A stretch of DNA of 64,000 nt. It comes from Moraxellaceae bacterium. GTDB taxonomy: Bacteria > Pseudomonadota > Gammaproteobacteria > Pseudomonadales > Moraxellaceae. The position numbers and the translations under genes are program-made. Location of the stretch: positions 22,107 to 86,106 of the forward strand of contig SECL01000007.1 of NCBI GenBank assembly GCA_004173455.1, read 5' to 3'. Under the pieces are notes generated by a model, which saw only the letters and a program-made list of their open reading frames with translations, did no database searches and had not been told where the DNA came from. Below, one piece after another: positions 8,143 to 47,435 of this stretch. Positions within the stretch are counted from its first letter, which is position 1; each line of letters starts with the position of its first letter.

Positions 8143-8254
8143 GATAATTTAGATCATTAAGTTCAGAAGATAAAAATTTAAAATGAAAAAATAGAAAGAT
8201 AATTTAGAAAAAGAGAAAAATTATAAATTGATTATAAACTCACAAAATAAAAGC

Positions 8255-8428
8255 TCCAAAGTGCCGCTGTGTATCGTTACCCTTGAACCCTAAAGTTCAA
8301 GGCGGAGGCGACGCCAACTTAAAGGCTTTCTACCCGAAGGCAGACATGCGCACAAAGTCAGCAGACCGCATCCATACGTGTTGATATCGGCTCAGGGGAT
8401 TAGGACACACTGGCGAACACTTCAGATT
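8255..8428 (-). ncRNA. ssrS: 6S RNA
   Basis: Minus strand reads GTGTTCGCC...TCCCCTGAGCCGATA...CCTTGAAC..TAGGGTTCAAGGGT..GCGGCAC, matching the gammaproteobacterial 6S pattern; downstream of zapA. Confidence 0.92.
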
Positions 8429-8434
8429 GATTTC

Positions 8435-15933: not shown

Positions 15934-16063
15934 GTAATTTGTGAGGATAATCACAAAATCCTGAGACTAAGGGTGAATGACGTGACGGATGTAATATCAG
16001 AATAAACGAGAATTTTAGGCTGTATGGTTAGTCGTTGCTTGTCTTCGTCGAAAAAATATTCTC

Positions 16064-16127
16064 GCGAAACAATGTTTGTCATCTCTTGCGCTCGGGGCAA
16101 GCAATGCTTGTCTTATCCTCACTCAGG
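16064..16127 (+). repeat. Double-hairpin repeat element, copy A
   Basis: CTTGCGCTCGG-GGCAAGC-AAT-GCTTGTC-TTAT-CCTCACTCAGG (16085-16127), preceded by an AAAC-AAT-GTTT hairpin; overlaps the pth stop codon. Confidence 0.8.
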
Positions 16128-18435: not shown

Positions 18436-18500
18436 CCTGAGCGAGGTTAAAGCGAAGCACTGCTCCGCCCGAGCGCAAGGGAAAAATCTATGATTTTTCC
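18436..18500 (-). repeat. Double-hairpin repeat element, copy B
   Basis: Minus strand GGAAAAATC-ATA-GATTTTTC-CCTTGCGCTCGG-GCGGAGC-AGT-GCTTCGC-TTTAACCTCGCTCAGG, ending just before the prs ATG. Confidence 0.85.
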
Positions 18501-18504
18501 TTAA

Positions 18505-18556
18505 AGGTTAAAGCGAAGCTTTACAAAACAATGTTTCTCATGTGTCTAAGCGCAAG
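18505..18556 (-). repeat. Double-hairpin repeat element, degenerate copy C
   Basis: Minus strand CTTGCGCTTAG...GCTTCGCTTTAACCT; shares a 15-bp exact block (18505-18519 = 18444-18458) with copy B. Confidence 0.6.
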
Positions 18557-35614: not shown

Positions 35615-36907
35615 ATGACCACCAGTGCGCAGAATACATCAGTTAACACCACGACCATCGCCAGTACCTATAGCTTGCAAGGATTTGATTTCAAAAATCG
35701 TTTTATCAAAGGTGCCATGAGCGAAGGACTGGCCAACAAGGCCGGTGAGGTCAATAGCAAACATTTAAAATTGTACGAAACCTGGGCGCAAGGTGGTCTG
35801 GGCTGCGCAATTACCGGTAATGTCATGGTGGATATTAGAGCCAAGAATGAACCCGGTGTGGTGGCCATTGAAGATGAACATGATCTGGCTGGCCTGACCC
35901 AGTGGGCGAGTATTGGCAAGCAGTACAACATGATCCAGTTGGTGCAGTTGTCGCATCCGGGTCGCCAGTGCCCCAAAGGTCTGAACAAGGAAACCGTTGC
36001 CCCATCAGCCATTCCGTTTAGTCCGGCACTGTCTACTTTTTTTGGTACACCGCGCGCTTTAACCGAAGCCGAGATTCAGGACATTATCCAGCGCTTTGGC
36101 AATGCGGCGCGTATTTGTAAAAAAGCCGGTTTTGAAGGTGTGCAACTACATGGTGCGCATGGTTATTTGATTAGCCAGTTTTTATCACCACTGACCAACC
36201 AGCGCACCGATCAATGGGGCGGCAGTATTGAAAACCGCATGCGCTTTTTGCTGGAAGTGTATAAAGAAGTACGCCAGCAAACCGGCGACAATTTTATTGT
36301 CAGTGTCAAACTGAACTCAGCCGATTTCCAGCGCGGTGGCTTTACTGAAGAAGATGCCATGGCGGTATTTCGTGCTATTGATGCACAAGGCATCGACCTG
36401 ATTGAAATTTCTGGCGGTACTTATGAAGCGCCTGCAATGGCTGGTGCCAAACGTAAAAAACCGACAGACCAGCCAGCAGTAAAAGCAAGCACACAGGCAC
36501 GTGAAGCCTATTTCCTTGAGTTTGCTGAAAAAATTCGTCAGCAAGTCAAAACTGCCCTGATGGTCACCGGTGGCTTTAGAACCCGTCATGGAATGGACAG
36601 CGCCCTGCAAAGTGGTGCTTGTGACTTTATTGGCATTGCACGTCCATTGGCGGTAGAAACTGATGCACCGGATCATTTGCTGGCCGGTAATGACAGCGTG
36701 CGCTATGCGGTTAAACCGATCAAAACTGGCTTACCCATGCTGGATAAAATGGCGGTGATGGAAGTGATCTGGTATGCCGCGCAGTTTAAGGCGATTGGAC
36801 AGGGCAAAAAACCCAAGCCAAACCTCAGTCCGCTGTTGGTACTGGCCAATTATGCCCGTGGCAATATCAAGGCAATCTTGCAACGCCGTACCCGGTTACG
36901 TGCCTGA
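35615..36907 (+). CDS. NADH:flavin oxidoreductase (old yellow enzyme family)
   Basis: QLSHPGRQ, GVQLHGAHGYLISQFLSP, NQRTDQWGGS; start placed at MTTSAQ. Confidence 0.9.
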   Translation: MTTSAQNTSVNTTTIASTYSLQGFDFKNRFIKGAMSEGLANKAGEVNSKHLKLYETWAQGGLGCAITGNVMVDIRAKNEPGVVAIEDEHDLAGLTQWASIGKQYNMIQLVQLSHPGRQCPKGLNKETVAPSAIPFSPALSTFFGTPRALTEAEIQDIIQRFGNAARICKKAGFEGVQLHGAHGYLISQFLSPLTNQRTDQWGGSIENRMRFLLEVYKEVRQQTGDNFIVSVKLNSADFQRGGFTEEDAMAVFRAIDAQGIDLIEISGGTYEAPAMAGAKRKKPTDQPAVKASTQAREAYFLEFAEKIRQQVKTALMVTGGFRTRHGMDSALQSGACDFIGIARPLAVETDAPDHLLAGNDSVRYAVKPIKTGLPMLDKMAVMEVIWYAAQFKAIGQGKKPKPNLSPLLVLANYARGNIKAILQRRTRLRA

Positions 36908-46823: not shown

Positions 46824-46851
46824 TTGACAGCTTACTTAGATTCTCTATAAT
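46824..46851 (+). promoter_or_regulatory. Stable-RNA-type sigma70 promoter of the tRNA operon
   Basis: TTGACA-16 bp-TATAAT followed by GC-rich discriminator GCACCCC. Confidence 0.85.
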
Positions 46852-47245: not shown

Positions 47246-47435
47246 TTTTAAACAAATCATAGATTTGTTCTTGCGCTCTGACAAAACATTATTTTGTTAA
47301 TAGTGTTTGATGTTTAGATACTCCGCGCTTCGCTTGACTTGCGCTTTTTTAAAGCAGTGCTTTAAATGTTTTAAACAAATCATGGATTTGTTCTTGCGCT
47401 CGGACAAAGCAGTGCTTTGTTTGTCCTCGCTCAGG
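47246..47435 (+). repeat. Cluster of double-hairpin repeat elements (copies D, E, F)
   Basis: 40-bp direct repeat 47246-47285 / 47369-47408 (2 mismatches); CTTGCGCT at 47270, 47338 and 47393; hairpins ACAAATC-AT(A/G)-GATTTGT and AAAGC-AGT-GCTTT; ends CCTCGCTCAGG at the tRNA-Val 5' end. Confidence 0.85.

Follow-up and report, generated by a model that had tools for sequence, protein, structure and literature searches.

What is a short double-hairpin sequence that, within one stretch of a Moraxellaceae genome, abuts the 5' end of a tRNA gene, precedes the start codon of prs and overlaps the stop codon of pth: a host RNA signal, a protein-binding site or a mobile repeat? The stretch of 64,000 nt that was analysed (hereafter the window) belongs to an Alkanindiges genome (3.0 Mb, 46% G+C, 80 contigs, 99.94% complete). 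An earlier reading of the letters alone (the sequence-only reading) had counted at least six copies at three loci, and these are borne out, at the places given, as three complete and three decayed double-hairpin units (Table 1). Over the window, the complete units are retrieved with E-values of 2e-10 to 4e-9 by a covariance model (R1) of the core only, derived from alignment A2, the E-values of which are rough, while all three decayed units are visible by eye and score 9.7-12.7 bits with R1. Another R1 match, at window positions 35716-35792, lies within an open reading frame, has no hairpin and is regarded as a chance match. The coordinates also agree with the proposal that the complete copies end at gene boundaries. 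In the 47.4-kb copy, the last two bases, GG, are at the same time bases +1 and +2 of tRNA-Val (start at 47434). The 18.4-kb copy ends in CTCAGGTG, with the prs ATG (18429) 4 nt further, and thus supplies the AGGTG ribosome-binding site of this gene. In the third copy, the TCA of CTCA at 16123-16125 is, on the other strand, the TGA stop codon of pth (open reading frame and Pfam). The first tRNA-Val of the Val-Asp-Asp-Val cluster has no element ahead of it, and a near-consensus promoter (TTGACA, 16 nt, TATAAT) is located 21 nt upstream of this gene, at window positions 46824-46851. The window also contains the 6S RNA gene (SsrS) at positions 8249-8431 on the minus strand (Rfam RF00013, 98.6 bits).

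Table 1. Element copies, their parts and their gene neighbourhoods (window coordinates unless a contig is named; scores are those of covariance model R1).
Feature	Position	Strand	Details
Complete unit, 47.4-kb locus	47369-47435	+	63.2 bits, E 2e-10
Hairpin A of the 47.4-kb unit	47374-47392	+	AACAAATC / ATG loop / GATTTGTT; from the sequence; a separate 8-bp hairpin in the minimum-energy fold
Core module of the 47.4-kb unit	47393-47435	+	CTTGCG, outer helix CTCGG, hairpin B (47404-47420), bulge TTGT, CCTCG, CTCAGG
Decayed unit 1	47251-47301	+	Hairpin A 47251-47269, CTTGCGCTCTG 47270-47280, hairpin 47281-47297; tail gone; weak match 47270-47301, 10.7 bits
Decayed unit 2	47338-47366	+	CTTGCGC 47338-47344, hairpin B TTTAAAGC/AGT/GCTTTAAA 47348-47366; weak match 47338-47384, 12.7 bits
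Complete unit, prs leader	18436-18503	-	59.3 bits
Parts of the prs-leader unit	18480-18500; 18469-18479; 18452-18468; 18436-18446	-	Hairpin A; core; hairpin B; tail
Decayed unit upstream of the prs-leader copy	18505-18556	-	Tail and half of hairpin B repeated; ends in CTTGCGCTTA (18547-18556); match of just 9.7 bits
Complete unit, pth 3' end	16061-16127	+	56.7 bits
Core module of the pth copy	16085-16127	+	Antisense to pth; hairpin B 16096-16112
Weak hairpin-A position of the pth copy	16061-16084	+	AAAC/AAT/GTTT, 4 bp
Source-genome copies upstream of genes		sense	ychF, prfC, pgsA, rpoC (rpoB-rpoC spacer), prs, tRNA-Val
Source-genome copies at or over 3' ends		antisense	ribBA, UPF0126 gene, queA, minE, pth, ntrC-like gene, acyltransferase gene
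Other source-genome loci			After ilvC (sense); between two unnamed genes; inside NasA
-10-like box, prfC	C27:24700-24737		TGCTATAAT
-10-like box, ychF	C1:3499-3530		TGCTAAGAT
-10-like box, pgsA	C27:164540-164577		TGATATGAT

The unit is about 60 nt long and consists of two modules, hairpin A and a long imperfect hairpin, arranged in the order hairpin A, CTTGCG, 5-bp outer helix, hairpin B, TTAT-type bulge, return strand of the outer helix and CTCA. In the complete window units this takes the form of hairpin A, CTTGCGCTCGG, hairpin B, a 4-nt bulge (TTAT, TTGT or TTAA) and CCTC(G/A)CTCAGG. Hairpin B has a 3-nt loop and a stem of 7 bp in the window units and of 7-9 bp across the family. Hairpin A exists in a short form, with a 4-5 bp stem (N-AGC/AYA/GCT-N) that is followed by TCGY, and in a long, AT-rich form of 8-10 bp that abuts CTTGCG and is found in prs and tRNA leaders. 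The stems given by the sequence-only reading are correct, except that GCGGAGC/GCTTCGC and GGCAAGC/GCTTGTC hold one G.T pair each; its hairpin A is present too, although at the 16.06-kb copy it amounts to 4 bp only (AAAC/GTTT). This part of the pth copy (16061-16084) is not conserved in relatives, and similarity to the five other Alkanindiges genomes starts exactly at position 16084. The outer helix, made of the five bases after CTTGCG and the five before CTCA, was revealed by degenerate source-genome copies, in which its variants are complementary (CAGCG/CGCTG, ACTGG/CCAGT, CAACG/CGTTG and GGCGCG/CGCGCC); AACGG/CCGTT occurs in a relative. The commonest outer helix, CTCGG/CCTCG, is mismatched at its two middle positions (T.C and C.T). 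Units are found singly or in head-to-tail arrays, the period of which is about 63 nt because the terminal CTCAGG starts the next hairpin A (CTC-AGGC-ATA-GCCT-TCGC-CTTGCG). There are no long terminal inverted repeats, and the element contains an internal quasi-inverted match (7 of 11 positions) between CTTGCGCTCGG and CCTCGCTCAGG. At the far end of the two-unit array at queA lies another 35-nt palindrome (ACCTTG...CAAGGT) of a different sequence type (contig C17, L013:2588-2622), which suggests a mosaic of differing hairpin modules, as in BIMEs. Several known motifs were considered and rejected: a σ70 promoter within the element, of which the candidate boxes seen by eye (TTGCGC and TTATCC) are 21-22 bp apart and hence too distant, and a DnaA box, a K-turn and attC, which were dropped from the sequence as their defining motifs or geometry are missing.

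Folding of the single strand yields two adjacent hairpins, the second of which is closed at its base by pairing of CUUG with CAGG. For the 47.4-kb and 18.4-kb copies the fold z-scores range from -2.5 to -4.2 on either strand, and the fold of the pth copy is indistinguishable from those of shuffled sequences (z about -0.5 to -1.1). That conserved flanks accompany covarying stems, as the sequence-only reading had stated, is confirmed by two sets of copies. Among 43 copies, 97.7% of the cells of hairpin B are paired and all six pairs analysed carry changes on both sides, whereas pairing drops to 36-50% when the partner is slid by one to three columns; the stem of hairpin A reaches at least 4 bp in 80% of copies versus 26% of shuffles. 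Since the external copies of this set were chosen with a pattern that fixes the flanks, the set informs about the stems and not about flank invariance. The orthologous prs site of five Alkanindiges and seven Acinetobacter species shows almost no variation in the flanks; pairing there amounts to 94% in hairpin B, where 4/7 pairs have changed on both sides, and to 91.5% in hairpin A, where 3/9 pairs have done so. The T.C and C.T mismatches of the outer helix are likewise present in all 12 of these orthologues. On the element (sense) strand, G.T mismatches are not clearly in excess of A.C mismatches (7 versus 4-5), and this near-equality is as compatible with pairing in DNA as with pairing in RNA. 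Template switching from arm to arm in a palindrome could also produce compensatory changes without selection, a point that weighs against the mobile-element reading.

The search of the genome and its relatives with a covariance model, by which the family was to be judged, yielded further copies well beyond the window. In the source genome, 19 matches emerge from an iterated HMM search and 20 units from the covariance model, spread over about 15 loci; the units retrieved by the model were all among its seed copies. An exact search for the 11-mer CTTGCGCTCGG locates it nine times in the 3.0 Mb, and in eight cases a hairpin and a CCTCRCTCA-like tail come after it (the tail being exact in seven). 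The ninth, on contig C2, has neither hairpin nor tail and is likely due to chance, as is a match on contig C46 that has no hairpin and sits inside a 914-aa open reading frame. Five other Alkanindiges genomes, including A. illinoisensis NFYY 23406 and A. hydrocarboniclasticus H1, carry 8-22 units each. In a sample of one genome per species, partly fragmented and with some of the first-look candidates scored in the batch-searched genomes, a match is present in 40 of the 101 Moraxellaceae genomes, which covers 11 of the 21 genera. Outside this family, the covariance model found no unit in 137 genomes that represent 57 further families of the order. When GTDB was scanned with a pattern, at one genome per species, copies with a hairpin came only from Acinetobacter, Psychrobacter and Alkanindiges and from a few proteobacterial MAGs without classification; the remaining pattern matches were G+C-rich coding sequence without a convincing hairpin. 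The element is also borne by Moraxella osloensis plasmids, and a phage collection contained no match to it. One relative of M. osloensis (G063) has eight equal-scoring copies, of which the five compared (L183-L187) are identical, with the outer helix AACGG/CCGTT, and sit in a larger repeat with common flanks of at least 70 and 50 nt. This larger repeat is probably another insertion sequence that carries the element along, and part of the copy number in the M. osloensis genus therefore reflects hitch-hiking.

In the source genome the units are found in both orientations relative to the adjacent genes (Table 1), and at about 13 of 15 loci it is the CTCA end that lies closest to a gene boundary. 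Genes that enter the element from the CTCA side stop either at the TGA within CTCA (pth) or at a TAA in the complement of the TTAT bulge (ribBA, the UPF0126 gene and queA), and the third frame through the element is open and is used inside NasA. The earlier idea that all copies lie in translation-related operons does not extend to the whole genome, in which ribBA, queA, minE, ilvC, pgsA and the ntrC-like gene, among others, are also flanked by them. At ilvC, the last 16 sense codons and the stop codon (48 nt) are duplicated, with one copy on each side of the element (contig C23, L015:2472-2632); the repeat is 81% identical over 53 nt, with the differences mostly at synonymous positions, and the same arrangement is present in A. 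illinoisensis. It is the only locus with a long flanking duplication. Upstream of prfC, ychF and pgsA an extended -10-like box directly follows CTCA, so that the -35 region of these likely promoters falls within the element; the box of prfC is succeeded by a G+C-rich discriminator. This arrangement, together with the greater conservation of the apparently single-stranded flanks than of the stems and with the invariant TC/TC mismatch of the outer helix in 12 orthologues, is what a duplex DNA site common to a set of promoters would predict, e.g., an operator or a nucleoid-protein site. Such a site is nevertheless highly improbable as an explanation: many copies are located at 3' ends, between convergent genes or inside genes, the units form tandem arrays, and the stems covary, which is not required of a sequence-specific duplex site.

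The placement of the oldest copies makes a stronger case for a cis-acting RNA element of the host, acting in processing, stability or translation of tRNA precursors and of the prs-rplY-pth operon, with the scattered copies as secondary duplications. The prs-leader copy is orthologous in the 12 species mentioned, with nearly invariant CTTGCGCTCGG and CCTCGCTCAGGTG between compensated stems, and it provides the ribosome-binding site, part of which would be sequestered by the CUUG-CAGG pairing of the predicted fold. Copies abut the 5' ends of tRNA-Val or tRNA-Ile genes in three genera (Alkanindiges, Acinetobacter and Psychrobacter), and in the spacer from tRNA-Gln to prs it is the element alone that is conserved across Alkanindiges. 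The protein-binding RNA-processing signal envisaged by the sequence-only reading is kept alive, for some copies, by this long conservation in the prs leader and the tRNA spacer. As an account of the whole family, however, an RNA element of the host is unlikely. About half of the source-genome copies run antisense to the gene beside them, a copy directly upstream is found at just one of the window's eight tRNA genes, the first tRNA-Val of that operon having an ordinary promoter instead, copies reside inside transposase genes, recB and NasA, and G.T is not enriched over A.C on the sense strand, as the counts given above indicate.

That the element is, or recently was, mobile, as had been supposed for a mobile palindrome, is indicated by pairs of filled and empty sites in IS3, IS256 and recB. 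On the M. osloensis plasmid NZ_CP068110.1, two units of 60 and 59 nt are present in opposite orientations in one IS3-family transposase gene. The first insertion, in the sense orientation, replaces the Tyr codon of the GDSYDNA motif by 63 nt and keeps the frame; the second one (59 nt) is inverted and lies near the 3' end of the gene. In the sister IS3 of an Acinetobacter variabilis plasmid both sites are empty, and in M. osloensis pYHS2 the first is filled and the second empty. The transposase CDS of NZ_CP068110.1 (L157:1458-2767) is annotated as intact despite its two element copies, and one of the IS3 insertions lengthens the protein by a net 20 residues next to the catalytic DNA(L)AE motif. 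A third insertion, with a net gain of 59 nt, is found in an IS256-family transposase gene of plasmid NZ_CP024183.1, of which CP040258.1 and NZ_CP024446.1 hold empty sister copies. The element is thus seen to insert as a discrete block of 59-60 nt in either orientation. All three filled sites start with CACT and end with CGCTCA, or with CG(C/T)T followed by the target's own CAGG, a word already present at the junction in two of the three clean target sites. Between 2 and 4 A/T bases are apparently lost per site (TTAT, AA and AAA), and none of the three filled/empty pairs has a target duplication; filled and empty copies share only 88-95% identity, which leaves some doubt about the exact junctions. 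At 15 of 16 source-genome loci there is no flanking duplication longer than expected by chance, the exception being the 48-nt end of ilvC.

Host genes contain insertions too. Three Alkanindiges genomes have an in-frame insertion of ~155-195 nt, made up of these units, in recB, a gene that is uninterrupted in A. hydrocarboniclasticus and in the source genome. The source genome alone has a two-unit array in place of the final three queA codons and the spacer that follows. Finally, the NasA-like nitrate reductase holds one unit in frame in a variable linker. This linker, between the molybdopterin and the dinucleotide-binding domains, is replaced and 48 nt longer in three Alkanindiges genomes compared with A. 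hydrocarboniclasticus (L020:2400-2545 vs L145). The element can reside in frame in protein genes, as observed in recB, the NasA linker and the IS3 transposase.

The sequence-only reading had considered spread by a RAYT or other HUH-type enzyme, and some features fit a Y1 HUH transposase (RAYT or TnpA) that mobilizes a REP or IS200/IS605-type palindromic element in trans: there are subterminal hairpins at both ends, inverted terminal repeats and target duplications are absent, on the complementary strand two of the three insertions lie directly 3' of GCCTG, which resembles the fixed-word insertion of IS200/IS605, and Y1 genes are present in eight of nine genomes of the M. osloensis genus, which holds the datable insertions. 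The distribution of these enzymes does not follow that of the element, however. A Y1/RAYT gene (PF01797) has no match in the 99.94%-complete source genome, nor is there one in three of the five other Alkanindiges genomes (9-18 units), so that four of the six genomes of this genus have the element without Y1. Y1 genes occur in 49 of 101 Moraxellaceae genomes, including six genera that have Y1 genes and no element. In addition, the flank of the third insertion differs (TTATC), 2-4 bases are lost at the sites, the stems vary among copies of one genome, which is unusual for the hairpin of a single enzyme, and the GTAG/CGTC tag is absent. The IS200-like copy that was inspected has unrelated ends; it had come into view as a gene apparently adjoining a copy in a relative of M. 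osloensis, and the neighbouring copy turned out to be the IS3-embedded one. Movement by a Y1 enzyme is accordingly quite improbable. IS91-type Y2 transposases were also rejected: 5 of 101 genomes have one, and the M. osloensis genus has none.

A spread without a dedicated enzyme is a speculative and on balance doubtful candidate. In Acinetobacter baylyi, short-patch double illegitimate recombination generates microindels of 3 to ~100 bp at microhomologies (bioRxiv 10.1101/2023.11.22.568220). We hypothesize that the insertion pattern of the element matches this process, the size range of which includes that of the unit. Single strands carrying the hairpins and resistant to exonucleases would anneal at microhomologies at the replication fork, for which CAGG, present at two of the three new sites, is a candidate, and would be built in, the oldest copies (e.g., that of the prs leader) having been co-opted separately. 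Such a route would explain why targets are not duplicated, why 2-4 bases are replaced and why the element is confined to a family capable of natural transformation. A cluster of SNPs beside the second IS3 site, as a sign of a recombination patch, was not significant (P = 0.23).

Taken together, the element is probably a miniature, palindromic and gene-less repeat of the REP/RPE-like kind, restricted to the Moraxellaceae (Alkanindiges, Acinetobacter, Psychrobacter and Moraxella osloensis), some copies of which have become fixed and were possibly co-opted. It would be selfish or neutral DNA, transcribed together with the adjoining genes and forming two stable stem-loops, and the few old copies (prs leader, 3' end of pth and tRNA spacer) would owe their persistence to selection or concerted evolution, with a possible role in translation or in the stability or processing of RNA. 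Several observations sit uneasily with a mobile element of this kind. No transposase, terminal inverted repeat or target duplication links it to a known transposition route, and it is present in few copies for a selfish repeat. Orthologous sites in two genera are occupied by several copies with nearly invariant flanks, which a host function would also predict. The three clean insertions each replace A/T-rich bases, at junctions that carry the uncertainty noted above.

The element appears to be undescribed. The sequence-only reading did not recognize it as a named family, in line with which Rfam has no match at gathering score in the window and chance-level matches only (E >=1) in permissive scans of two loci; the literature searched, the coverage of which was incomplete, describes neither the motif nor such a Moraxellaceae repeat. 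It apparently belongs to the general kind of miniature palindromic intergenic repeats, and the lack of a cognate Y1 gene and of target duplications sets it apart from REP/RAYT systems and classical MITEs, respectively. With the REP and BIME sequences of E. coli and other Proteobacteria it shares short imperfect extragenic palindromes in both orientations, single or clustered, located within operons and just after stop codons, a family-specific consensus and, presumably, co-transcribed hairpins. It differs from REP/RAYT in having CTTGCG and CTCA as flanks, with neither a GTAG/CGTC tag nor a RAYT gene, and from REPINs in that its arrays are head-to-tail rather than inverted doublets. Unlike REPs, it numbers about 20 copies instead of hundreds, the flanks are conserved while the stems vary, and some copies are orthologous across genera. 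The Rickettsia palindromic elements (RPE), repeats of ~100-150 nt inside protein genes (PMC10969869), are similar in being palindromic, in having no known transposase and in residing in frame in conserved genes as well as between genes. The likeness proposed is a functional one; RPEs belong to another bacterial class, and the element described here is ~60 nt long and mostly intergenic.

The Correia/NEMIS repeats of Neisseria and the ERIC sequences of Enterobacteriaceae, which are classical bacterial MITEs, are also small, non-coding and located at gene ends, fold within mRNA and can contribute processing signals or promoters, but they have long terminal inverted repeats and, in the case of Correia, TA target duplications, neither of which occurs here. 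IS200/IS605-derived elements are alike in having a hairpin near each end, no inverted repeats or duplication and possibly insertion at a fixed word; in the present element, by contrast, a matching Y1 transposase is missing, the target word is not constant and the hairpin sequences are variable. MITEAba12, found in the same bacterial family, is likewise small and non-autonomous, with 1-22 copies per genome. This MITE, of 113 bp and 78% A+T, is mobilized by ISAba12; its terminal inverted repeats measure 16 bp and its target duplications 9 bp (PMC6382973). An identity with it was discarded, none of its features of size, A+T content, inverted ends or duplication being found here.

In the literature searched, the small repeats of the Moraxellaceae comprise MITEAba12 and integron-flanking MITEs, and the element differs from both. 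Alongside Rickettsia, it provides a second clear example of palindromic repeats residing in frame in core genes (e.g., recB). The datable filled and empty sites in insertion sequences offer a handle on the old question of how REP/RPE-like repeats move when they have no transposase, and the prs-leader copy, kept in two genera together with the ribosome-binding site, is a test case for the co-option of a mobile hairpin into gene control.
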